DNA of 27,542 bases from the IMG/VR virus record IMGVR_UViG_2663762992_000005; one strand, given 5' to 3'. Every line of letters begins with the position of its first letter. Position 1 is the stretch's first letter. Made by a program: the position numbers and the translations under genes. The notes under the pieces are model-generated. The model saw only the letters and a list, made by a program, of their open reading frames with translations, was not told the DNA's origin and did no database searches. This document shows positions 762 to 21,366 of the stretch, one piece after another. The DNA is from a virus (taxonomy: Duplodnaviria > Heunggongvirae > Uroviricota > Caudoviricetes).

Positions 762-3730
762 CTGTATGCTCCGCTCAGCCTGCCACCATCACGCCCCTGC
801 ACAGTCAGTGTTTTCATTGCTGCCTGTTCGGCAATCTCATACACCATCTTCAGCGCGCCGGGGCCTATTTCACCGTTACTGCCGTCATTCTGTATGTGCA
901 CACTGAACTGCTGATTAACCACCACGCCACCTCCCGTCCCTTCCATTCCCGTCGCGGTGACGGCCAGACGACCTTTACTGTCTCTGGTCAGCGGCATAAT
1001 CGCTTCCGGCCCCGCTTCCCCCATCAGTCCCGCCCCTTTGGCAAACGGAAACAGCGTGGGCCTGTCGACGACAGTAGAGCTGTAAGCACTGAGTCCCGGA
1101 GAGTCATAGACGCCCCCCCGGGCATTACCCACCACACCGGAAATTGCACTGCCAATCCCTCCCAGGATCCCTCCGGCACCACCCAGTGATCCGCCCAGTG
1201 CCTTCAGGCCGTTAACCAGCGCGGCATTCACCAGAATTTTCTGAATGGTCTGGAGTATCATCGTCCCCCAGTCACGCCATGAGCTTTTATTGCCGTTAAG
1301 GGTGGCGACAATATTATCCGCCAGCCCGTCCATGGCGTTCGACACTGCGTCCTTTATCTGCTGTGCATAGTTACCGGCCTTGTCCATCCAGTTCTTCATG
1401 CCTGCGGCGGCAGCTCCCGCAAAATCCTCCTCAGCCGCTTTTTTGTCTTCGGCGCCTTTTTTGACGATTTCAGTCTGCCTCTGCATTTCTTCGGCAAGCG
1501 CCTGTGTCTGTGCCTGGTAAAGCACTGATGAATGGTCTTTTACCTCCTCATCGAGCGCTTTCTGTTTCTGCGCAAAATCCTCACGGATCTGTTGCAGGGT
1601 GACCATCTGCTCATATTCCCGGTCGCTCATCGTCACCTGAGCAGCAGCGTTATTCTGCTCCTGCTGACGGCGTGCCGTTTCCTCCCTGACATCCCGGAGT
1701 TGCTTTTCAAGCGTCACGGCAAGATTACGTTGTGCGTTTTGCTTCTCCAGGGCTGCGTTTGTTTCAAGCTGGGCACGCAGTTGATCCTGCATAGCCAGTA
1801 CGCTTTCCTGGACCTTTGTCAGTTTTTTCCCGGCGTAAGACGCGATTTCCTGTTCAAAAGCCAGTAATTTTTTCTGACTTTCACCCATCCGCTCCGTTTC
1901 ACGCCCCTGCGCTTTCAGCACCACTTCCTGTTGCTTCAGTTGCGCCAGACGGCGAACACCCTCGCTGTCCTGATGGGCGGACACCCCGGTTTTTTTATCA
2001 CCGTAGAGTTTGTCTATCCCTCTCAGGGCAGAAGCGTACTCATCAGCGGTGATTTTTCCGGCCTTATAGCGGGTACTGAGATCGGCGGTGGCTTCTGCTG
2101 CAAGACGGGTTTTATCCGTCCCGGCCTTGATCCAGGCGGCCAGATTTATCTGGGCGGTGATTTCTTTGCTCTGCTCATCCTGGCGCTGACGGGCGGCCTG
2201 AGCCCGGTCTTCCTCCTGTTTTTTCTCTTCGTCCCGCTTCTCTTTGAGCTTTCGGGCGGGCTCATCAATATCCACCCCCACCGCGGCCGCCATCGCGCGA
2301 CTGGTCTCAATCTGCGCTGAAGCGTAGCCCTCAAGCCCTTCAGAAACAGCTTTCTTCAGCTTCTCCCACCAGCCAATGCTCTCCTCAGTCTGACGCTGTT
2401 GCTCCTTCATTTTGTCCGCAACGTCATCAAGCATGATTTTCTGCACCAGCGCCACCGCCTCGGCGGTTTTACCCAGGCGGGCCAGGGTGGCAATCTGCTC
2501 TATCTGCGCAGCATTAAATTCGTACCCCTGCTGCGTGGCATCCTGCATCGCTTTGACCGGATCGCCACTGATGGATGACAGCTGTCGGACCAGCTCATCA
2601 GCATTCCCCCCCAGTGATTCCAGCTGGCTACCGAGTGAGGACACGCGATCCAGCATCTCGCCGCTGAACCCGGCCTTAACCGCGGCCGTCACTGCCTTCA
2701 TGGAGCCATCCGTGTCACCCAGGCTTTTATTCAGCGCCCGGATCCGGGTCAGGCTGAGTGACGCGCCACTATTGCCTTGCAGTAATGCCGCATTCAGGGC
2801 TTTCGTTTTTTCTTCAGCTTTGCTGTAGGCAGACCACAGTGCCGTCACGCCAGAAACCAGCGCAATAATCCCCAGACCGACCGGCCCGCCTACCATCGCC
2901 AGTGCACCGTTCAGCAACGCGGTACCCGCGGCGGCGGCACGCGCTGACAGAGAAATCTCATAGTTCCTGGCGCTGATAAGACGCATGGCATCCGAGAGCT
3001 TCGACTTTCCGAGTGCTTCCAGTGCCTCCGCTTCTGCCGCTGCCTTTCCCGCCGCAGCCACCCGTTGTTTGGCGACGCTGGCCGCCATGTCTGACTCTTT
3101 AAGCTGCGCGTTTATCTTCCGGTATTCCTCTCTGTAACTGACCGCAAGACCGTACTCTTTATTGACTTTCTGCTGCTGATCGTAATGACGCGCCAGCGCC
3201 ACGGCATTTTCTTCGACAGCCTTCGCTGCTTCATAGTCTTTTGCCGCGCTCTGTGCCACATCCAGTGCTTTTTGTTTTGCCGCCTGCGCCGACTGGATTT
3301 GCGCCCGGGCGGCATCATATGCCGCCTGAGCGGTTTTGCTGAACGCGTCCCGCTGTTGCGCGAGTACACCTTTCAGTTGTTCAGCCCCCGTCAGCGTCCG
3401 GGATATCGCCGGTACCAGGGCATTAGCCAGCGTACTGGCGGACACATTCCCCGTGGCAGCAAAACCATTGAGAGCACTACGCAGTTGATCAAAGCCGCCG
3501 CTTCCTGTTTTCAGGCGCGAGGAAAGGCCTTCGAAAGTGCGTCCCAGCCCTCCGGCACTGGTACCCACACTGCCGATGGCATCCCCGGTCTCTTTCATTT
3601 CCCTGCGGGTGGACTCAGCAAATCGCCGGGCCTCACGGCTGCCGGTCTGATAAGCATCCATAAGGTCGGCTTTGAAAGAGGCGCTGTTCACATGCAGACT
3701 GACCGCCAGCGTTCCGGCATTACCACTCAT
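758..3730 (-). CDS. Tail tape measure protein
   Basis: 990-aa ORF with a long Ala/Gln/Lys-rich coiled-coil and a Gly-rich C-terminal region; sits between the G/G-T chaperone and M as in lambda. Confidence 0.85.
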   Translation of the reverse strand: MSGNAGTLAVSLHVNSASFKADLMDAYQTGSREARRFAESTRREMKETGDAIGSVGTSAGGLGRTFEGLSSRLKTGSGGFDQLRSALNGFAATGNVSASTLANALVPAISRTLTGAEQLKGVLAQQRDAFSKTAQAAYDAARAQIQSAQAAKQKALDVAQSAAKDYEAAKAVEENAVALARHYDQQQKVNKEYGLAVSYREEYRKINAQLKESDMAASVAKQRVAAAGKAAAEAEALEALGKSKLSDAMRLISARNYEISLSARAAAAGTALLNGALAMVGGPVGLGIIALVSGVTALWSAYSKAEEKTKALNAALLQGNSGASLSLTRIRALNKSLGDTDGSMKAVTAAVKAGFSGEMLDRVSSLGSQLESLGGNADELVRQLSSISGDPVKAMQDATQQGYEFNAAQIEQIATLARLGKTAEAVALVQKIMLDDVADKMKEQQRQTEESIGWWEKLKKAVSEGLEGYASAQIETSRAMAAAVGVDIDEPARKLKEKRDEEKKQEEDRAQAARQRQDEQSKEITAQINLAAWIKAGTDKTRLAAEATADLSTRYKAGKITADEYASALRGIDKLYGDKKTGVSAHQDSEGVRRLAQLKQQEVVLKAQGRETERMGESQKKLLAFEQEIASYAGKKLTKVQESVLAMQDQLRAQLETNAALEKQNAQRNLAVTLEKQLRDVREETARRQQEQNNAAAQVTMSDREYEQMVTLQQIREDFAQKQKALDEEVKDHSSVLYQAQTQALAEEMQRQTEIVKKGAEDKKAAEEDFAGAAAAGMKNWMDKAGNYAQQIKDAVSNAMDGLADNIVATLNGNKSSWRDWGTMILQTIQKILVNAALVNGLKALGGSLGGAGGILGGIGSAISGVVGNARGGVYDSPGLSAYSSTVVDRPTLFPFAKGAGLMGEAGPEAIMPLTRDSKGRLAVTATGMEGTGGGVVVNQQFSVHIQNDGSNGEIGPGALKMVYEIAEQAAMKTLTVQGRDGGRLSGAYR

Positions 3731-4313
3731 TTCATCACCCTCATAAAAGCAGCGCAGGCCGCGGCAGTATCATCCGGTGAAATGGCCGGTACATTCAGTC
3801 CGCTGTCGGGCGGGTCGCCAGGTGCCATACCATTAATTTCCGGAAGATTAAGAAACGCCAGCCACCCCATCAGAACAGAAGCTGGCAGAGACAGAATTTT
3901 CAGTGGATCGGGTTCTCCCAGGCGGTCAGCCAGCTGGTAAGCCAGCAACAGCCAGGGAGATTGCCTCAGTTTTTTTGCGCCTCCTCCAGCGTCCCGTAAC
4001 TGTGCCGCTGAATAACTGACACAGCCTCAATCAGGGCGGCGTTATCATGTACGGCCAGCAACTCATCCACGGTGGGGAGGCTTTTGGGTGGAATGGCATT
4101 CCCGTTTTCATCCACCAGCACTGAAAGGATGAGTCCGGCACTGAGTCGGGCGGGGACCAGCGCATTATTCGCTGCGCGGGCATCTGCGATGGCATCGTCG
4201 TAGTCTGCCGCCTCGAGTGCACTCATACGACGGATGTGCACCGGCACGCCCAGCAGGGTACAGTCCGCAACCGTATGGGTGGCAGACAGCAGCGCGCTTT
4301 TCAGATTTTTCAT
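3727..4313 (-). CDS. Tail assembly chaperone G-T fusion made by programmed -1 ribosomal frameshift
   Basis: The -1 frame is open from the heptamer A_AAA_AAC (minus strand, forward coordinates 3969-3975) through to 3727, and its stop overlaps the tape-measure ATG. The G/GT arrangement is conserved in long-tailed phages. Confidence 0.6.
3966..4313 (-). CDS. Tail assembly chaperone, gpG-like
   Basis: 115-aa ORF directly upstream of the tape measure; ends with the slippery heptamer AAAAAAC immediately before its TGA stop. Confidence 0.65.
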   Translation of the reverse strand: MKNLKSALLSATHTVADCTLLGVPVHIRRMSALEAADYDDAIADARAANNALVPARLSAGLILSVLVDENGNAIPPKSLPTVDELLAVHDNAALIEAVSVIQRHSYGTLEEAQKN

Positions 4314-4380
4314 TTATCAGAGTCCTTATTTACAGAAGGGGTAACAGGAAATGATGCGTTTAACGTGTGGCGCCGGGCGA

Positions 4381-4851
4381 TTATGGTTTTGGGGTAACCG
4401 GGGTAGTGGCTTTACTTCCCCATGTAATGGAGTTTTGCTTACCCTTCACCTCGAGCTGGATGACTGCGCTCGCCGGAGCCTTGATTTCCGCCATCTGCCA
4501 GCCCGCCAGCGCAATAACTGACGTTGATGTGCGACCATTGGGCAGTTCAACGTAAAACTGCACCACCTCGCGACGCTCTGCTGCGTTCAGAAAATCCGTC
4601 AGATACTGGTCTTCCGGATCATCAACAAACGTCAGCGTCTTATCCGGTCCGTCAGGCAGATCCGAAATGTACTGCTTCTGGGTGTCCAGCAGCGTGGTAC
4701 AGTCAACAAAACCACCCTGTAACCCCATCGCCCCCACGCCGGTACAGCTTTTCAGTGGCTTCAGCGCCGCGACATTGTCGCCGGGCATCCCCCACTTCAC
4801 GGCCGATCCTGCCGGAAGGGTCGCGTACTCAGATGATGTTTTACCTGTCAT
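4381..4851 (-). CDS. Major tail (tube) protein
   Basis: 156-aa ORF, ATG at 4849-4851 with a GAGG Shine-Dalgarno; position between the gp10-like protein and the G chaperone. Family assignment is by synteny only. Confidence 0.55.
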   Translation of the reverse strand: MTGKTSSEYATLPAGSAVKWGMPGDNVAALKPLKSCTGVGAMGLQGGFVDCTTLLDTQKQYISDLPDGPDKTLTFVDDPEDQYLTDFLNAAERREVVQFYVELPNGRTSTSVIALAGWQMAEIKAPASAVIQLEVKGKQNSITWGSKATTPVTPKP

Positions 4852-13388: not shown

Positions 13389-13780
13389 TATCCTGTTTAT
13401 TTGATACAAACTTAGTAGAAAAAAAGGAATCAGAAACGGTCGCTAGCGGGAACTTCTCATTTATAAAGAGAACTTAGGCGGTCGCCGCCCAAGCATGTCG
13501 CAACGGCAAGTGACAATTAATAATGATAATACTTATACTTTATTGTCATTATGGAGGCTTTCAAGTGTCGACGTTATGCAGAAACCATGCCTGAGGAGAC
13601 CTTCGACAACACACTTATGTCTGACATGCTCAGCACTCAATTCCCTCCATCGGCAGTTTATGTTGTGCAACATAAATTATAGTGCCATCAATCACAGATT
13701 AAACAAGTGTGACTTATACACCCGTATCGTTGGATCAGTCTTTGGAGGAGTATTCATGATTGCCGTCATTAATCCGCGGA

Positions 13781-13814
13781 TTTTAATAAAAAAGCACTGG
13801 CAAATACCAGTGCT
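13781..13814 (-). terminator. Intrinsic terminator for the two-gene moron
   Basis: Eight-bp stem AGCACTGG/CCAGTGCT with a 6-nt loop, followed on the minus strand by TTTTTATT. Confidence 0.55.
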
Positions 13815-13889
13815 TTAACAATAACTCTACATCTAGAAAGTTAAAAATCTTAAAAGCAAAACATAAATAGCAATGTAAAATTAAATTAT

Positions 13890-14267
13890 TTATTTTTTGT
13901 CTTTAAAATAATAGCCAATTATAAACCCAAGAGATGTTCCTAACGCACTAACCATAATAGATAACACCTTATCTAACTCAAGTAGTGCGATACTTTTAGA
14001 AGCCTCCATGAGCCCTTTGCTTTGTAATTGAAGTACCCATTGCACTGCGCAATAGTTATAAACTATCACAAATATAAAAGAAAAAACGATAAGACCAAAA
14101 AAGCCTCTCATAAATGTTATGGTTAATGTACTCCTTGTTTTACCATCACGAAGAAATTGAGCCTGAATTTCATTTTCAATCTCTCCTGTTTCCTTCTCTA
14201 TTCTTTTATCTTCAAATCTTAACGCATTAACTTTAGATAACAAAGCCTGAATATCTTCCGTAGCCAT
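13890..14267 (-). CDS. Hypothetical membrane protein (coiled-coil N-terminus, two C-terminal TM helices)
   Basis: 125 aa; strongly AT-rich codon usage; ATG at 14265-14267 preceded by GGAGGGG located in the end of the upstream gene. Confidence 0.55.
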   Translation of the reverse strand: MATEDIQALLSKVNALRFEDKRIEKETGEIENEIQAQFLRDGKTRSTLTITFMRGFFGLIVFSFIFVIVYNYCAVQWVLQLQSKGLMEASKSIALLELDKVLSIMVSALGTSLGFIIGYYFKDKK

Positions 14268-14269
14268 TA

Positions 14270-14539
14270 TTACCCCTCCGACCTAAGCTCTGCTAATTTA
14301 TCGAGGGCATTAATGTATTTAGCATGTGCCTTATGATAATTGGCAATTGCTTTGAGCGACTCATTAATATCTTCAGAAAATGATGAATAAAATTCATATG
14401 GATCCTTACCAGCATAGTCAGGTAAGTTCGTTATGATTTTTTGTATTAAAACAATATTTTTATCCGTAAGTTCACCTGTAGCATCTCTGAATTCAAATAA
14501 ATTTTGAACTATAGCATCTATTTTTTTTACATTCGACAT
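14270..14539 (-). CDS. Hypothetical small acidic protein
   Basis: 89 aa, AT-rich, first gene of a two-gene unit with its own promoter. Confidence 0.55.
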   Translation of the reverse strand: MSNVKKIDAIVQNLFEFRDATGELTDKNIVLIQKIITNLPDYAGKDPYEFYSSFSEDINESLKAIANYHKAHAKYINALDKLAELRSEG

Positions 14540-14574
14540 ACATAATCCATTTTTCTCAGATTAACTGTTGAATT

Positions 14575-14604
14575 ATTATAGTTCATTTACACCTTTCATC
14601 TCAA
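14575..14604 (-). promoter_or_regulatory. Sigma70-like promoter for the two-gene moron
   Basis: Minus-strand TTGAGA (14599-14604), 18-bp spacer, TATAAT (14575-14580), about 35 nt upstream of the ATG at 14539. Confidence 0.4.
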
Positions 14605-15284
14605 CTTATCATACCATTGATAACACTTTTTTGAACCAGTCAGCTATGAGTGGCCCATCAAAGGATTTAGAGGTTCGATTCATCAGTGTTATCCAATTTA
14701 TCTTGACATCAATAGGGTAAACGGTTATGACTAAAACTACATGACTATCGCGTAGGCAATTCGGACAAAGGTGATTATCAAGCTTAGAAATGAAGGTACG
14801 TTTATATCCCACCAAATACCGTAACCACATTCATGGCGACTTTTTCAGTTCTGCGTTGATGCCAGACGTTGAGTTTGAGCCCCTCGTAATAGCCTAAACA
14901 GTCAGTAGTAGTCCGCAGACATCCTAGTGGGATAAGAAATCATATAGTTTTTTAATTTTCCGTCGCAAAGTAAAATCCCCAGGCGCAAACGGTTTACCCT
15001 AGCTAACTACTGTCACAGCATTCCCCTGAATGCCTGCTGCAATGCTCACTTAGTAGTGTTGAAGTCCTACCCCTTAAGCGATAAATCGGTAAAATTGAAA
15101 CTAAGGCTTCAATGATGTGACATAGAGACGGCGGTCCAATTCTATCAGTTTACCGATCAAAGCGACTACAAACTCCTTTTTTTTAATCTCATTCGATACT
15201 TCATATCGTTGAAGGAGTGTAGACTCAGGTCGTTGTGCATTGTGTAATTCATTTTCAATTTCTTTTAATGTATGGAGTAGAGTC

Positions 15285-15941
15285 ATGGGAATTCTCACTT
15301 TCGATATCACTTGCCCACATTGTCTGAGGGAAAATGCTGTCCTTGAAGGATGGGCAGAACTGCGTATCAACGCCGGGCCTTTAGTTAATATTGCATTTTG
15401 TTGTCGAAGCTGTTTTCAATCAGGTATTGCTATTGTAAAAATGAATAATCCCGGTGGTTATTTACCTCGTGCAAAATCTAGGCAAAATAATGATGTAAAC
15501 GTAATCATTCCTGGAAATACTGAGTACCAGTTGATTGATATCATCCCGAAACCCACCCTCCTTAACGCCCCCGAACACACTCCGCCACGTGCTGCTATGG
15601 CTTTCATAGAAGCAAAAGACAACTTAGGGCGCTGTCGTTTCGACACATCCGTTATGCTTTGCCGTAAAGTCTTGGACATTGCTACACGGGAGTTACTGGG
15701 AAATGACTCAAAAGATGAAAAATTGGTTAAACGGATTTCTATGTTGCATGCTAAGGGACTGATTACAGATCAAATGAGGGAATGGGCACATATAGTTCGA
15801 ATCGATTCCAATGGAGCAGTTCATTCTGATGAAGAATTTTCAAAAGAAGATGCTCAAGAAATGATTGGTTTCACCGAAGTATTTCTTCTATATGCCTTCA
15901 CATTGCCTGATATGGTAGACAACAAAAAACAAAATCAATAA
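15285..15941 (+). CDS. Zinc-ribbon protein with DUF4145/HEPN-like C-terminal domain; candidate abortive-infection or defence protein
   Basis: ATG at 15285 with GGAG 7 nt upstream. N-terminal CPHC and CCRSC cysteine pairs; C-terminal R-x7-H motif (VRIDSNGAVH) in a helical region, as I recall for DUF4145. AT-rich and opposite in strand to the surrounding phage genes. Confidence 0.55.
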   Translation: MGILTFDITCPHCLRENAVLEGWAELRINAGPLVNIAFCCRSCFQSGIAIVKMNNPGGYLPRAKSRQNNDVNVIIPGNTEYQLIDIIPKPTLLNAPEHTPPRAAMAFIEAKDNLGRCRFDTSVMLCRKVLDIATRELLGNDSKDEKLVKRISMLHAKGLITDQMREWAHIVRIDSNGAVHSDEEFSKEDAQEMIGFTEVFLLYAFTLPDMVDNKKQNQ

Positions 15942-16156
15942 GTTATAGAGCCACAGTTTGACATCCACACTTTGTTATGCATAAGAATGTCTTTCTTGGT
16001 CTGCCTGTCCAGCACTTCCCAATCATGAGCAGTGCCGTAGATGGGTTTTACCCAATCGCAGCCGGTGTCAATAACCTCAATCCTTACGTGTCCAGTTTTT
16101 GCGCAGCTCGCGATCAGCAGCGTCATCAGGCATATGGTTAACAGTCTGTTGTACAT
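15935..16156 (-). CDS. o-spanin (Rz1-like outer-membrane lipoprotein)
   Basis: Signal peptide with lipobox LIASC; start lies inside the i-spanin gene in another frame and the ORF extends past its stop (overlapped architecture). Confidence 0.65.
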   Translation of the reverse strand: MYNRLLTICLMTLLIASCAKTGHVRIEVIDTGCDWVKPIYGTAHDWEVLDRQTKKDILMHNKVWMSNCGSITY

Positions 16157-16353: not shown

Positions 16354-16968
16354 TCACACCAGTGCAGCTTTAGCTTTGGCGTAACGTTCACGGCGGTCTT
16401 TAATGCCGTTCTGTCCGCCGTTAATAATCTGCGTAACGCGTGCCACGTCACCCGAATACATCAGGCAACCGCGTAACGTGAAGTACCACGCAGCCGAACG
16501 AGCCGCATGTCGCTCTTGCGTTAGCAATTCTGGCGTACTGATAAGGTCAAGTTTCAGCGCCGTGCCGCATTTGGTGTAGTTCTCACGACCCGTGATTTGC
16601 AGCAGGCCGCGACCGCGATATTTCCAGCCGTCACCCTGGCTGTTATTCCCCATGCGGTCACCATAAACCAGATTGGCTATTTGCGGCTGGTGGGCCACCT
16701 GCTTACCATCGACACGACCCAGCATTTCACACTGATAAGGAGTAAGCCGTTTACCAAAGGTTTTCTTCAGCCCCTCTACCGAGTAGTTGAAGCTTTCCAC
16801 CAGCGAGGTAAAGCCAGCAGACTCATGCCCAACCTGGGCGATGAACATAGCCAGATCGTTCGTAGCTGTAATGCCAAACTCTTTCATTGCCGCGTCAATG
16901 TGCGGAAACCAGCGCGCAGAAAGCCCGGCGCTGATACCAGCCGCCTGCTGAAATTGTGATTGGTTCAT
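16354..16968 (-). CDS. Endolysin, glycoside hydrolase family 19 (chitinase-like lysozyme)
   Basis: Motifs FIAQVGHESAGF and YRGRGLLQITGRENY resemble the GH19 signature; ATG overlaps the upstream stop (TAATG). Confidence 0.8.
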   Translation of the reverse strand: MNQSQFQQAAGISAGLSARWFPHIDAAMKEFGITATNDLAMFIAQVGHESAGFTSLVESFNYSVEGLKKTFGKRLTPYQCEMLGRVDGKQVAHQPQIANLVYGDRMGNNSQGDGWKYRGRGLLQITGRENYTKCGTALKLDLISTPELLTQERHAARSAAWYFTLRGCLMYSGDVARVTQIINGGQNGIKDRRERYAKAKAALV

Positions 16969-17249
16969 TAGTGCCTCAGATGATCAACCAGACGTGCCAC
17001 GTTGCCTCTTACGGCGACCAGCACGGACAGGAAAATAAAGTTGGCCCCGATAGTGGCCCATGATGAGTACGGGTAAATACCGCACAGATACGCCAGCGGA
17101 ACGGCGCTGTAGATGACCGTAAGCAGCCACGCTAAGCGAGATATCCACGGTCGATGTCGCGAGTCGCCGCGACGGTAAAACATCAGGGTTAACACTACCC
17201 CAGCACAAAGCAATGCATTAAAAGTTGCCGATGGGTCATTTTGTACCAC
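16968..17249 (-). CDS. Holin-like / antiholin-like small membrane protein
   Basis: 93 aa with two or three TM segments; GTG start at 17247-17249 preceded by GGGGAGG at 6-nt spacing; sits between the holin and the endolysin. Confidence 0.5.
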   Translation of the reverse strand: MVQNDPSATFNALLCAGVVLTLMFYRRGDSRHRPWISRLAWLLTVIYSAVPLAYLCGIYPYSSWATIGANFIFLSVLVAVRGNVARLVDHLRH

Positions 17250-17622
17250 CTGAACCTCCCCGGCGCGTTATCAGCGCCACCAGCGAGCCGACATCCTGAT
17301 TATTCAGGAATGTCAGGATTTTGACGGCTAAAGCAGAAACGATTACGGCGCCAATGGCATCCAGTGGTTTATCACTGTAGCCGGTAGCCTGAGCCAGCTT
17401 TGAACCCACCAGCCCGGAACAAAGGATCCCCGCGATATACGACACCAGAAAATATGCCAGTCGGCGCGCTGCACTTAGATCCGCTGCGGTTGCAATGTAA
17501 AATACAGCCCCGGCAAATGCGCCAAACACCACGCCGTAATCGGTTCCGGATAGAAATCCATAGACGCTGGCCCCCGTCAGGACACCACCAGCCATCCCAG
17601 AACCGGAAATCGGATCGGACAT
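17236..17622 (-). CDS. Holin
   Basis: 128 aa with three predicted TM segments and a charged C-terminus; ATG at 17620-17622 preceded by GAGGGGGG; first gene of the lysis cassette. Confidence 0.6.
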   Translation of the reverse strand: MSDPISGSGMAGGVLTGASVYGFLSGTDYGVVFGAFAGAVFYIATAADLSAARRLAYFLVSYIAGILCSGLVGSKLAQATGYSDKPLDAIGAVIVSALAVKILTFLNNQDVGSLVALITRRGGSGGTK

Positions 17623-17672
17623 TTAGCCCCCCTCTTTGTTGCTGTGAGTCCTCTCAGAATGAGGGGAAATGA

Positions 17673-17700
17673 TTGATTTTATACATTAAAATATTACAAT
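17673..17700 (+). promoter_or_regulatory. Sigma70-like promoter for the plus-strand membrane protein
   Basis: TTGATT (17673-17678), 16-bp spacer, TACAAT (17695-17700), 30 nt upstream of the ATG at 17730. Confidence 0.35.
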
Positions 17701-17729
17701 ATATTTTTGACCAACTTTTGAAGAATACA

Positions 17730-18392
17730 ATGGACTCGAATACCTTAACCATTATAGGAACATTTATTGTTGCCATAATAAGCGGATTACTGGCTTATTC
17801 ATCTTCTCTTTCTGCAAAGGAAAAAGAGGTCAAATTATCCGCATATGAAAAACTCGGACTTGATATACATGCCAATCTTGAAAAGCTTTACAATAATACA
17901 GAATGGCTTTTACTGATTTTTCAACACAAGAATACATTAAACCGCGGAGATTTAATTATTGCCAACAAACAAGTTTCTCTAGACGTTGACAAACTCAGAG
18001 AACTTAGCATAAGAATGAGATTTTTTGATAATGCTTGCTATAAGAAATATGAATCTGTAGTTCAATCGCATGGTAATTTAATACCACAAATACTTGGTTA
18101 TACTCGGCATCCACATGAAACCCCAAGAGATGCTTCAGAACTTTACTCTCGAGAAGAAACACAGGAATTTATAAATAAATTATCCATACTAAAAGATGAA
18201 ATAAATAGCACTAAGATCCATATAACGAACAAAATAGCCAAGGAATATAACAAAGCCCTATCATCTTCAAGGAAAGTTACAGTGCTAGCTTTCATAGTAT
18301 TATTTACTGCATTTATAGCATTTATAATTTTCCCTTTGAAAGAGCAGTCACCTTCGCCCGCAAAAGAAAAAGTCATGCTGCTCTCTTCATAA
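17730..18392 (+). CDS. Hypothetical membrane protein with N- and C-terminal TM helices
   Basis: 220 aa from the ATG at 17730 (the track ORF starts at an upstream TTG); AT-rich; transcribed opposite to the late operon. Confidence 0.5.
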   Translation: MDSNTLTIIGTFIVAIISGLLAYSSSLSAKEKEVKLSAYEKLGLDIHANLEKLYNNTEWLLLIFQHKNTLNRGDLIIANKQVSLDVDKLRELSIRMRFFDNACYKKYESVVQSHGNLIPQILGYTRHPHETPRDASELYSREETQEFINKLSILKDEINSTKIHITNKIAKEYNKALSSSRKVTVLAFIVLFTAFIAFIIFPLKEQSPSPAKEKVMLLSS

Positions 18393-18611
18393 AAACTCGC
18401 ATTTTAGGCTGATTTTTATGCACCTGTGCAGGTAAGAACGATTACTAATTTAGCCTCACCTCCGATAGTTCGTATGGCGCTGTGGTTGATGGAGGGGGGG
18501 GCTGGCTTATGCGCTATTATGAAAATGTGAAGATAAGTATAATTTGCGAAACCTGAAATTATAAAAGACTTCCATTTGGAAGCCTTTAAAATAGCAGCAA
18601 GCGACTCATTG

Positions 18612-19463
18612 TTATTTTGTAGGTTTAGGACCTAACGTGAATTTTGATTTAGTTCCTTTTCGCAACCGTCTAACATCAGGAAAAAGTTCTACTAATCTAT
18701 CTGTACACTTAGTCAAGGATTCAGTACAAATAATCATCCCCATAATCATATAGCCAAAGTCATAGTTGTTAAAACAACCAGTTCCTCTTCCGTTTGGCTC
18801 CATTTTATAATATGACATAGGTAGTATATGCGTATAATGAGATAAAAAATCGAACATTATTTTAAATGACTTTGGATCTTTTCCCAGTTTAACCAATAAC
18901 TCATCTCGATTTGGAATCATAAGCGCTTTTCCAGTCAAGCAACGTTTTCTGGTTCCTTGTTCAAGGGATAAAAAAACAGGGTTGTTATTAAGTCTCTCAG
19001 TTATTATATCTTTTTGTTCATGATAAAAATCCAATGCTTTCGTATTATCACTAGATGTAAATAACTCAATTCTCTTTACACAATCATTCATGTGCATGAC
19101 ATTCAACTTTGCTGACCACTCCTCAGTTGAATCTGGATTCTCAGATAAATACATAAACAATAACTCAGCTTCCAGAATCGCTCTTACATGAGGTGCAATC
19201 GCCGAAAAATCCCAAAAGTCATAATCCCGCTTAGCCCATCTTGATTTTGGTACGTTGGAAATCATTATTGAAGCATGAATGCAGATTCGTGAAAAAATGT
19301 ATGTAGACCACCCTTTAAAAGCCTCAGCCATTCGCACACCAACCCCCTGACTTACAGCATTCGCTTCACATACAGCTTTATCAAACTCCCTTAAGTAGTG
19401 ATGGAAGTCATCCATCGAAAAATCGTTTCGTTCAAGTGGATTTTCGGGATTATCTATTTTCAT
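18612..19463 (-). CDS. Hypothetical protein (orphan, AT-rich)
   Basis: 283-aa ORF between the tR'-like terminator and the holin; followed by its own hairpin plus T-run near 18565-18584. Confidence 0.55.
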   Translation of the reverse strand: MKIDNPENPLERNDFSMDDFHHYLREFDKAVCEANAVSQGVGVRMAEAFKGWSTYIFSRICIHASIMISNVPKSRWAKRDYDFWDFSAIAPHVRAILEAELLFMYLSENPDSTEEWSAKLNVMHMNDCVKRIELFTSSDNTKALDFYHEQKDIITERLNNNPVFLSLEQGTRKRCLTGKALMIPNRDELLVKLGKDPKSFKIMFDFLSHYTHILPMSYYKMEPNGRGTGCFNNYDFGYMIMGMIICTESLTKCTDRLVELFPDVRRLRKGTKSKFTLGPKPTK

Positions 19464-19510
19464 ACTTCACCTATTTAAAACAATTGGTTTAAATCGGTGA
19501 ATTATAACGC

Positions 19511-19534
19511 AAAAACCCGCTCATTGGCGGGTTT
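19511..19534 (-). terminator. Intrinsic terminator downstream of the Q-like gene (tR'-like)
   Basis: Minus-strand hairpin CCCGC-CAATGA-GCGGG followed by TTTTT, about 95 nt after the Q-like stop. Confidence 0.5.
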
Positions 19535-19626
19535 ATAAAACTTTGGCAACATATCAAATACGCTTCAAATATGGCTTATTTTGTTGCATTTTGCAAGCGC
19601 GTTTGAAGGAGATAGTGAAATTTACT

Positions 19627-20337
19627 TCACATTTCTGCCACTTTGAGGGCTTCTTCTTCCTCATAGTATTCAAGAGCCATTGCCAACGCAGATTCATCAA
19701 GCTGGGTAAAAGCGGCCTTTAACCCAGCCCAGTGCCCTGAATAGACACGCAACCATGTCGAACGATCAACGCTAACCATGCGGGCCAACGCTGCACCAGC
19801 ATAGTCTTTATAGGTTTCATTATTTCTGGTTGCGGCAATTTCCTGCCCTGCCAGCCATACCAGGCCAATCAGTTTCTTTACTACGCGCTCCTGAAGGGAA
19901 TTATCACCCAGGCATTTCTGATAAGTTTTCCAGACGTATTCACACATCATCACTTGGTGCTTATAGCTAAGGTCAAAACCGTAGCAGTACCGCAACCAGG
20001 CCTGCTGGTATCCACTAAGCGCGGACACTGCCCTACGCCACGGCGCGGACTCAAATTCCGCATCTTTTATCGGCGGCATTGGCCTGCAGCGGCTGCGTGT
20101 TTCCAGTACATACAATGGCGCGGAAAGCGAGTTAACAAAGCGAGGCCCCTTCTCTCCTTCGAGTTCGACGAGATGAATTCCACGGCGCGGGGTGGCATTT
20201 TTGTCTGCTGGTGGGTGTTCACTGAAAGCCTCAAGCTGCCCTTTTGTTCCCCCAGAGAGGTCAGGTAGCGCGCGGCGCAATTCTATTCTTACAAAATTCA
20301 GGTCTTGTTGATTCATGCTTCTTTGCGCTCCATACAC
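19627..20337 (-). CDS. Putative late-gene antiterminator (Q-like)
   Basis: Call is by position: immediately upstream of a terminator and the lysis genes, downstream of nin-region-like genes. A likelier ATG start is at 20314-20316. Confidence 0.45.
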   Translation of the reverse strand: MYGAQRSMNQQDLNFVRIELRRALPDLSGGTKGQLEAFSEHPPADKNATPRRGIHLVELEGEKGPRFVNSLSAPLYVLETRSRCRPMPPIKDAEFESAPWRRAVSALSGYQQAWLRYCYGFDLSYKHQVMMCEYVWKTYQKCLGDNSLQERVVKKLIGLVWLAGQEIAATRNNETYKDYAGAALARMVSVDRSTWLRVYSGHWAGLKAAFTQLDESALAMALEYYEEEEALKVAEM

Positions 20338-21366
20338 TTAAGCTTTCGCAATTACGCCGATCGCCAGCGCCCGATCCATAAAACGCAGTAGCAGCTCAAG
20401 CTGCGTACCATGCTTCTGCTCGAATGCCGATACATCGGCGTGTAACTCGTCGTGGCACTCTCTGCACAGAGGGATCACGAAGAGGTCATGGGCTTTTGTT
20501 GCTGTACCACCCATACCGTGCCCTACGATATGGTGCGGATCATCTGCTGGCCGTCGGCAACACTCACAGGGTTGTGTTTTTACCCAGCGGGTGTAAGTCT
20601 CATTTATCCAGCGGCGTCGCTTTGGCCTGAGCATGAAAGATTCCGGAGACTCCGGATCAACAGAGAGCGTGAGGATCTTCTTCGCCTTCTCCTGCACGAG
20701 GCTGGTTGCAGTAGCGGAAGGCACAATGTCGCTTTCCCTCATGACCGAGCGGATCTTCTCATCCGGAAGGCGTAGCCCCTTGTGCGCAACGCTTTCCGGA
20801 ATAACATCAGCCAGGTCGTTTCTGACCATCCACCAGCACAGTTCCGGAAGCGTCAGGATATGCGACTCGGGAAAACCAGAATCACGCCGAATGACTTCCA
20901 GAATCCAGGATACCAGGTTTCCTGCCGCTATACCTGCAAGCCGTTCGGTATGCTGCCCCGACAAAGTGTGATCGCAATGCCAGCACAGGCGAATACTTCC
21001 TGGTGGGTGCCGCATTGTTGTGAAGTTCTTGTCGTGCCACGATGAATGTGGCCACTGGCATTCAAACCGAGAACTCAGCCACTGCTCAAGGGAAGGAAGT
21101 CCACCGGCACGCTGAATAACCCGCTCATTCCCGAAGACCTGCCGCATTACCGGATCATCAGCCAGCGGCTGAATGGCTGCCGGAACAGCCCCGGTACTGA
21201 ATGACGCCATTTCTTCTGGTTCAGGCTCGAGCAGAACGCGACCACGCATGAAGAGGTGCATCAGTTTAGCACCGGGACGGAACAGCACAATCCCCATACG
21301 ATGGGCGATCTCGGGGGTAAGCAGAGCTCTCACGCGACCTGCCCCCTGGCAATGTGTTCTGCCCAC
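20338..21366 (-). CDS. DUF968-like protein with C-terminal HNH-like zinc finger
   Basis: C-terminal CECC, HH and CRECH motifs; adjacent to the Q-like gene, as I recall for ydfU next to quuQ in E. coli Qin. Start codon uncertain. Confidence 0.5.
   Translation of the reverse strand: MGRTHCQGAGRVRALLTPEIAHRMGIVLFRPGAKLMHLFMRGRVLLEPEPEEMASFSTGAVPAAIQPLADDPVMRQVFGNERVIQRAGGLPSLEQWLSSRFECQWPHSSWHDKNFTTMRHPPGSIRLCWHCDHTLSGQHTERLAGIAAGNLVSWILEVIRRDSGFPESHILTLPELCWWMVRNDLADVIPESVAHKGLRLPDEKIRSVMRESDIVPSATATSLVQEKAKKILTLSVDPESPESFMLRPKRRRWINETYTRWVKTQPCECCRRPADDPHHIVGHGMGGTATKAHDLFVIPLCRECHDELHADVSAFEQKHGTQLELLLRFMDRALAIGVIAKA

Follow-up and report, generated by a model that had tools for sequence, protein, structure and literature searches.

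We analyzed a 27,542-nucleotide stretch of DNA from a virus of the class Caudoviricetes (IMG/VR record IMGVR_UViG_2663762992_000005; hereafter, the window) and, within it, a 283-amino-acid (283-aa) open reading frame (ORF) with an ATG start that occupies positions 18612 to 19463 on the minus strand (the target gene). The gene lies at a lambdoid late-gene junction, where the order on the minus strand is DUF968, Q, target gene, two holins, and GH19 endolysin. The DUF968 protein gene (20338 to 21366) belongs to the late-gene junction context, and the Q antiterminator gene (19627 to 20337; PF06323, E 3.7e-36; phrog_304, E 2.1e-71) delimits the slot in which the target gene sits. The downstream edge of the slot is the first holin gene of the lysis cassette (17236 to 17622; PF16931, E 5.6e-34; phrog_198), which is followed by the second holin gene (16968 to 17249; PF05449) and the endolysin gene (16354 to 16968), all on the minus strand.

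The target gene has a GC content of 35.7%, or 30.3% at third codon positions (GC3), and lies in a low-GC island (17.5 to 19.5 kb; 34 to 40% GC) between flanks of 52 to 57% GC. It is a real gene under strong purifying selection: comparison with the copy in Hafnia gave a nonsynonymous divergence (dN) of 0.073, a synonymous divergence (dS) of 1.84, which is saturated, and a dN/dS ratio of 0.04. An Rfam scan returned no RNA family within the AT-rich island, and there are no tRNAs, in contrast to Shiga toxin-encoding (Stx) phages.

The spacer between Q and the target gene is 163 bp long and contains a match to a pR′-type promoter, a hairpin with a T-run, and a TATAAT box. The candidate pR′-type late promoter (19568 to 19596, minus strand; TTGCAA, 17 nt, CATATT) was read by eye; it matches the consensus at 8 of 12 positions, below the scan threshold of 9 of 12, and is assigned by its position after Q. 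Next comes a tR′-like intrinsic terminator (19511 to 19534, minus strand), a GC-rich hairpin with the sequence AAACCCGCC-AATGA-GCGGGTTTTT and a T-run, with a predicted folding energy of −12.0 kcal/mol (z −2.6; folded from 19534 to 19511). The leader that follows (19464 to 19510, minus strand) contains the TATAAT box (19506 to 19501), which has no credible −35 element alongside, and a Shine-Dalgarno-like box, AGGTGA (19472 to 19467), 3 nt 5′ of the ATG. Just past the stop codon, a terminator scan found a second hairpin terminator (18564 to 18587, minus strand; −12.5 kcal/mol, z −3.9, folded from 18587 to 18564). The target gene is thus a self-contained single-gene cassette made up of a terminator, a short leader with a Shine-Dalgarno-like box, the gene, and another terminator.

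The original prediction, made from the sequence of the window, had described an AT-rich minus-strand ORF of 283 aa at exactly this place, located between Q and a holin gene, preceded by a tR′-like terminator, followed by a hairpin terminator of its own, and convergent with a plus-strand gene for a membrane protein. Because the ORF, its base composition and context, both hairpins, and the convergent neighbor were all found again, these descriptive claims hold, with the exception of the term "orphan," to which we turn now.

Assignment of the target protein to DUF5677

A search with the single protein sequence recovered 71 homolog clusters, nearly all of about 280 aa and with 41 to 99% identity, from Hafnia, Enterobacter, Citrobacter, Yersinia, Pantoea, Raoultella, Klebsiella, Vibrio, Photobacterium, Shewanella, and Pseudomonas. 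A profile search raised the number to 282 clusters at 90% identity, and an exhaustive hidden Markov model search to 1,256 superfamily clusters at 50% identity (E <= 1e-3), 177 of them with E <= 1e-30. With this many relatives, the protein is not an orphan. Against the Pfam family DUF5677 (PF18928), the target scored 21.7 bits (E 2.3e-4), which is under the gathering threshold of 27.1, with residues 84 to 219 aligned to positions 25 to 156 of the 166-position profile. However sub-threshold for the target itself, the match recurs among its relatives: 85 of the 97 that were aligned match the model (best E 1.1e-8), and no other family recurs. Longer superfamily members score 28.6 to 47.5 bits against DUF5677, many relatives have precomputed PF18928 matches, and several are named DUF5677 by NCBI. 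Because 85 of 97 aligned relatives match this model and no other family recurs, we assign the target, from these sequence comparisons, to a divergent, tail-bearing branch of DUF5677, and the earlier statement that the protein has no recognizable motif falls away with the word orphan.

The polar residues R94, E98, D127, R131, S208, and H212 are common to the target and 100 distant superfamily representatives. The target branch is set apart from DUF5677 at large by an extra pair of N-terminal helices, which carries D28 and C32, by additional conserved cysteines, and by a C-terminal tail that is basic and invariant. The assignment leaves the mechanism unexplained, since the Pfam family carries no assigned function; only two papers in the literature were found to mention DUF5677. 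A scan of the target against NCBIfam gave no match. Homology to a morphogenesis protein, which the original prediction had named as evidence against itself, was not found. Among ten longer relatives that were scanned, the sole informative fusion was P0226 (660 aa), in which an N-terminal DUF5677-like domain (residues 6 to 265) is joined to a C-terminal RES toxin domain (residues 450 to 576; E 5.2e-14).

Predicted structure and conserved residues

The target protein is predicted to be soluble and all-helical. An AlphaFold2 model built from a 97-sequence alignment had a predicted local distance difference test score (pLDDT) of 92.3 and a predicted template modeling score (pTM) of 0.90, and was made up of twelve helices, without any strand. 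Hydropathy over 19 residues peaks at 1.19, which marks a soluble rather than a membrane protein. Foldseek comparisons with PDB and with the predicted viral structures of BFVD returned nothing at E <= 0.001 and template modeling scores (TM-scores) of at most 0.34, and when PDB sequences were searched with a profile, no match rose above chance (E >= 0.97).

Over the 100 distant superfamily representatives, the positions conserved in at least 80% of sequences include P72, W84, D85, R94, E98, Y105, E115, K/R119, D127, R131, G178, S208, H212, P215, K/R220, R226, G227, and G229. The polar nature of eight of these (R94, E98, D127, R131, S208, H212, K/R220, and R226) suggests a catalytic pocket or one that binds phosphate or a nucleotide. 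The C-terminal tail (residues 266 to 283; window positions 18612 to 18665) is a low-confidence segment of the model and probably disordered; it includes the motif R268-K-G270-x-K-S273-K-F275-S-P-G278-P279, of which G270, S273, and P279 are present in 97 of 97 sequences. The consensus form of the tail, R-K-G-x-K-S-K-F-x-x-G-P, is missing from distant DUF5677 relatives. This invariant tail is probably a docking or regulatory peptide.

A slot between Q and the holin genes of lambdoid prophages

In prophages of Enterobacterales, the gene is the first after Q and tR′, lies in the sense of the late operon, and precedes the holin gene. It directly follows the gene in the Q position, on the same strand and before the holin gene, in prophages of Hafnia (86% identity), Enterobacter (82%), Citrobacter (58%), and Yersinia (57%) and in a decayed prophage of Raoultella (50%); in Enterobacter and Raoultella, the Q position is held by a 200-aa protein without a Pfam match. 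A scan of viral contigs, whose flanks were labeled with reference proteins already identified by Pfam, yielded 27 further loci carrying the family gene; of the 26 that could be assessed, 22 encode a Q-type protein directly before the family gene and a lysis cassette after it. The Q types found upstream were PF06323 (in two divergent types), DUF1133, PF06530, and PF03589, and the lysis cassettes downstream were composed either of holin_8, holin_3_7, and GH19 or of holin_2 and a lysozyme. In a 23rd viral contig, L071, an arsenic-resistance insert lies between Q and the family gene (positions 2243 to 4682, encoding ArsB and an FMN-reductase-type protein), and the slot therefore takes non-defense cargo too.

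The original prediction had placed the gene in the Q-to-lysis junction between two terminators; its standing as extra cargo of that junction is supported, and this layout recurs in most of the homologous prophage loci. Of 29 lambdoid loci, 25 have a terminator-like hairpin 34 to 212 nt 5′ of the start codon, and most homolog loci have an equivalent of the downstream hairpin 14 to 70 nt past the stop codon. The exceptions without a downstream hairpin include the Citrobacter-type prophages, in which an N6/N4 methyltransferase gene comes next. At three loci (L079, L083, and L087), the family gene directly adjoins a Q-like ORF, with no detected terminator separating them; in L083 the gap is 4 nt, and a strong terminator lies 68 nt past the gene. 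Location behind tR′ is therefore the rule but not universal, and at these three loci the family gene may be co-transcribed with Q.

The cassette moves as a unit. A blastn comparison of the window with the Hafnia prophage (L033) found homology from position 19534, at the upstream terminator, to position 18612, at the stop codon, with 79.8% identity, and the Q gene and the sequence downstream of the cassette were non-homologous. The segment from terminator to stop codon is thus a mobile unit, and the slot from Q to the holin gene is a swap site: in E. coli genomes that share the Q and holin flanks of the window, the island was not found at the DNA level, and in the one that was inspected, elppa4, the same Q and holin genes enclose an unrelated 261-aa gene (hhalign probability, 0.5%). 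We note that the Q gene of elppa4 is annotated as frameshifted (L060, 3593 to 4283) and that this prophage may be defective. In keeping with the features of a moron, the target gene is present in some and absent from other related prophages, deviates from its surroundings in GC content, and has its own downstream terminator.

It is mainly for harboring the Shiga toxin genes that the Q-to-lysis junction is known. In a preprint on phage hyper-variability hotspots, lambda, the lambdoid phages, antitermination, holins, and lysis all go unmentioned.

Two further genes were seen in these prophages at some distance from the slot. A gene with a RelA_SpoT domain follows the lysis cassette of the Enterobacter prophage (L035, 10855 to 11931), and at the Citrobacter locus, about 8 kb past the family gene, there is a DarT-HD gene (L039, 16574 to 16855). 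Both are likely to be defense or toxin modules near family members.

Homologs outside lambdoid prophages

Two P2-like prophages carry the family gene beside replication gene A. In L082 it lies directly 3′ of gene A (Phage_GPA, E 8.7e-100), and in L081 three ORFs, one of 331 aa and two small ones, separate it from a nearby gene A (E 3.8e-75). Within the flanks that were fetched, the gene A side was visible at both loci and the side of portal gene Q was not seen. The gpA-gpQ interval of P2 is a hotspot that holds old and tin, and its cargoes have been validated as anti-phage systems (PMC9122126).

At 32 non-enteric loci, from Alpha-, Beta-, and Gammaproteobacteria and one metagenome-assembled genome of Latescibacterota, the gene is solitary. 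All-versus-all clustering of the flanking ORFs of these loci revealed no conserved neighbor, and the only recurring clusters were antisense shadow ORFs. We scanned the 135 proteins encoded within 3.5 kb of the non-enteric homologs for defense functions. Strong matches were found to LmuB (6.9e-165), Old (1.9e-229), ThsB (3.4e-129), type I methyltransferase and restriction enzymes, MzaA/E, MADS, PDC-S06, AbiLi, and AriA, as well as to TIR (four proteins), AIPR, and IS66 domains. On a Pseudomonas megaplasmid, the family gene neighbors a type I-F CRISPR-Cas locus (Cas3/Csy2), and in Vibrio it neighbors the gene for a DUF4365-TPR protein. The family is also present in nine plasmid records. In 50,697 deposited phage genomes, neither DNA nor tblastn searches turned up a copy of the gene.

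The GC content of the family gene was below that of the distant flanks in 25 of 25 loci, by a mean of 8.4 points, in a comparison that drew on the non-enteric loci (L001 to L032) and the enteric loci L033, L035, L039, L044, and L045. The enteric copies have 36 to 38% GC despite saturated synonymous divergence. Such persistently low GC suggests continual transfer or selection for AT-richness.

Possible functions of the target gene

Because of its defense-island and P2-hotspot contexts, its solitary architecture, its foreign GC content, the RES fusion, and its absence from deposited phages, we favor a conflict function and predict that the target is a single-gene module of anti-phage or inter-element conflict, a reading that we hold tentatively and at somewhat less than an even chance. 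The target would act as a stand-alone exclusion or abortive-infection factor, directed against phages or other elements. In the lysogen, a slight leak through tR′, possibly with a contribution from the weak TATAAT box, would give low expression of the target, and the downstream terminator of the cassette would keep this leak away from the holin gene. Upon induction, RNA polymerase modified by Q would pass both terminators, and a burst of expression would follow ahead of lysis.

The lack of any copy among 50,697 phage genomes fits defense of a host or prophage better than it fits general phage counter-defense. There are validated systems that are located in prophages in E. coli and in defense islands elsewhere (PMC9519451). 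Close parallels are found in single-gene prophage defenses of hotspots, such as Old and Tin of P2, BstA, and the P2-hotspot DUF4238 protein; like them, the target is a solitary gene of prophage variability hotspots, without a conserved partner and with homologs in defense islands. The target differs from them in several respects: it is unrelated to them in sequence and in fold, it has no PADLOC match, it lies in the sense of the late operon and is not an autonomously expressed lysogeny gene, and its anti-phage role is a prediction.

Several observations weigh against a conflict function. The association with defense islands consists of raw matches among neighbors, counted without a matched random-locus control. 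The target matches none of the 5,027 defense models of PADLOC-DB v2.0.0 (0 families at E <= 1), nor did a PHROGs scan produce a match. The proposed enzymatic pocket is read from conservation, because the fold has no informative structural neighbor. There is no convincing promoter belonging to the gene itself, and a consensus scan reports none in the leader. In an E. faecalis test with six phages, five constructs gave protection, and an ORF encoding a DUF5677 protein of Bacillota was not one of them (PMC12632615); this relative is very distant, the host was heterologous, and the test was untargeted. Finally, the strict sense orientation behind tR′ suggests that Q-dependent late expression matters, and it agrees with a function in the lytic cycle at least as well as with protection of the lysogen.

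This last point is the basis of the main alternative, one that we consider unlikely though worth weighing, namely that the target is a late-acting factor of benefit to the phage, the first Q-dependent late protein, which would protect the lytic program or the progeny. Examples would be counter-defense against sensors of late structural proteins, or the blocking of satellites or co-resident prophages that hijack late functions. In about 28 lambdoid loci, the gene follows immediately upon Q and tR′ in the sense orientation although the Q and lysis modules differ, but such a conserved position could also result from common descent combined with shuffling of the flanking modules. The methyltransferase gene that follows in Citrobacter-type prophages, with no intervening terminator, encodes an N6/N4 DNA methyltransferase, a typical means of progeny protection, and there is a precedent in phi80, whose Q-dependent late operon expresses atiEcA, a gene of counter-immunity (PMC11364771). 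A purely late role is harder to square with the loci outside lambdoid prophages, where the non-enteric homologs are solitary chromosomal or plasmid genes in defense islands rather than in phages and where the two P2-like prophages carry the gene on the defense-hotspot side of gene A; nor does it sit well with the empty search of deposited phage genomes.

A more far-reaching proposal, and one that we regard as rather improbable, is that the target represents a new enzyme class whose function depends on its being the first Q-antiterminated late protein, that is, an effector coupled to induction. Such an effector might, for example, shut out satellites, co-resident prophages, or superinfecting phages in the last minutes of the producing cell, or disarm host sensors of late structural proteins. 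The same proposal includes a fold and active site unlike those of solved structures, with the C-terminal peptide docking on a host or phage target.

The position of the gene also raises the idea of a payload on the Stx model, which would be made in bulk at induction, released by lysis, and active on competitors or a eukaryotic host. Like stx in Stx phages, the target lies past Q and tR′, before the lysis genes and in the sense orientation, and it shares with morons of that slot the flanking terminators, the terminator-gene-terminator layout, the deviant GC content, and presence or absence among similar prophages; stx is co-transcribed with the late genes after induction (PMC8065619). What the target lacks is the architecture of a secreted toxin. 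Inspection of its hydrophilic N-terminus showed no signal peptide, the hydropathy maximum is low, and domain scans found no toxin, receptor-binding, or eukaryote-like domain. Unlike an stx-slot moron, its family has been retained in the slot alongside at least four Q families, at identities as low as about 44%, is without toxin domains, and occurs outside phages in defense islands, with homologs in free-living soil and marine Proteobacteria. We therefore regard a payload as very unlikely.

An equally poor prospect is a HEPN-like RNase acting as an abortive-infection protein. The fusion of an N-terminal DUF5677-like domain to a RES domain in one relative pointed in this direction, and such an architecture is known for a HEPN family (HEPN_RES_NTD1). 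However, the R-x4-6-H motif is not conserved (at most 37 of 97 sequences carry it at any one position), the conserved Arg and His are on different helices, the 97 members show no recurring HEPN Pfam family, the Foldseek search of PDB gave nothing at the threshold stated above, and hhalign against the DUF4145 protein of the window itself (described below) gave a probability of 0.2%. On the defining motif and the profile comparison, both of which fail, we rejected the HEPN lead.

The convergent neighbor is an independent cargo of the slot

Between the target gene and the holin gene, the plus strand carries a gene at 17730 to 18392 that encodes 220 aa from its ATG, or 239 aa from an upstream TTG at 17673. 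Its product has two putative transmembrane segments, with strongly hydrophobic stretches at about residues 3 to 27 and 179 to 207 and a helical middle of about 150 aa, and belongs to a family of 18 homolog clusters, mostly of 220 aa. The gene is probably expressed in the lysogen, and its product is a candidate for superinfection exclusion.

The neighbor gene resides in an independent insertion of 952 bp (17660 to 18611) between the target gene and the holin leader. Two viral contigs, L064 and L066, align to window positions 19445 to 18612 and then resume at 17659, with 131 bp between the two blocks in place of the 952 bp of the window; their identity to the window is about 80% at the DNA level for the target gene and 84% for the lysis module. 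The neighbor gene is missing from 32 of 32 non-enteric family loci, and it is missing beside the family gene in the prophages of Hafnia, Enterobacter, Citrobacter, Yersinia, and Raoultella. Among the viral contigs it is likewise missing except in L061 and L068, in which the target protein is 100% identical to that of the window. Conversely, in Enterobacter mori, Lelliottia, and Kosakonia, homologs of the neighbor occupy the Q-to-holin slot, antisense to the late operon and without a DUF5677 gene. Both genes occur together, in an identical layout, only in the E. coli prophage lineage of the window (at least 24 contigs), whose integrase gene adjoins icd at locus L054. Because each gene occurs alone, and because of the difference between 131 and 952 bp, the two are independent cargoes stacked in one hotspot, and the neighbor is not part of the DUF5677 cassette.

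These data bear directly on the proposal in the original prediction that the two convergent genes function as a pair. Such a two-component system, for example of immunity and counter-immunity or of sensor and effector, would be coordinated by convergent transcription. In its favor are the adjacency and convergence of the genes inside the AT-rich island, their shared layout in the E. coli lineage, and the precedent of tai and ati in phi80, where a non-contiguous arrangement is functional and late transcription reduces how strongly the gene opposed to it is expressed (PMC11364771). The likeness extends to the layout, with one gene opposing the late transcript and an adjacent gene inside the Q-dependent late operon of a lambdoid prophage, but the target and its neighbor, in contrast to Tai and Ati, do not co-occur beyond one lineage, and the family scans detected no homology to either Tai or Ati. 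The original prediction had named a lack of co-occurrence across prophages as evidence against the pair, and that is what we found, several lineages having the target gene alone and several others the neighbor alone. With the DUF5677 gene alone at all non-enteric loci, in five enterobacterial lineages, and in viral contigs outside the lineage of the window, with the neighbor alone in three genera, and with the neighbor confined to a discrete insertion, a functional pair is extremely unlikely.

In a Citrobacter prophage, the sequence just 5′ of a holin_2-type gene (L042, 10180 to 10227) is 87.5% identical to a 48-bp stretch within the insertion (18451 to 18498), which also resembles the ribosome-binding region of an Enterobacter holin gene. 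This stretch appears to be left over from a former junction, one with another lysis cassette.

Other features of the window

At the start of the window, positions 37 to 159 on the minus strand are a full-length match to RF01387, isrC, an Hfq-binding small RNA (150 bits versus a gathering score of 39). A second AT-rich island (13500 to 16000; 34 to 41% GC) lies between the lysis genes and the HNH and terminase genes. It contains a plus-strand gene for a DUF4145 protein (15240 to 15941; phrog_1305, E 7e-43), which also has a weak match to PD-T7-4 (E 0.0027), and two small minus-strand ORFs, at 13890 to 14267, the translation of which has a hydrophobic stretch, and at 14270 to 14539. This island looks like another cargo hotspot.

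Implications

For annotation, the target gene changes from an orphan to a divergent DUF5677 gene in a late-operon leader cassette, and what resembled a gene pair separates into two independent cargo genes that are pair-like only in this lineage. More broadly, our analysis brings out an uncharacterized family that has been kept in an stx-type position across many lambdoid prophages of Enterobacterales and that elsewhere is found in defense islands, on plasmids, and beside gene A of P2-like prophages. The position raises the question of whether expression tied to the late switch is part of the mechanism. With a confidently predicted fold that has no solved relative, and with its absence from current defense-finder libraries, the target protein is a cheap-to-test candidate for a single-gene phage-conflict protein.

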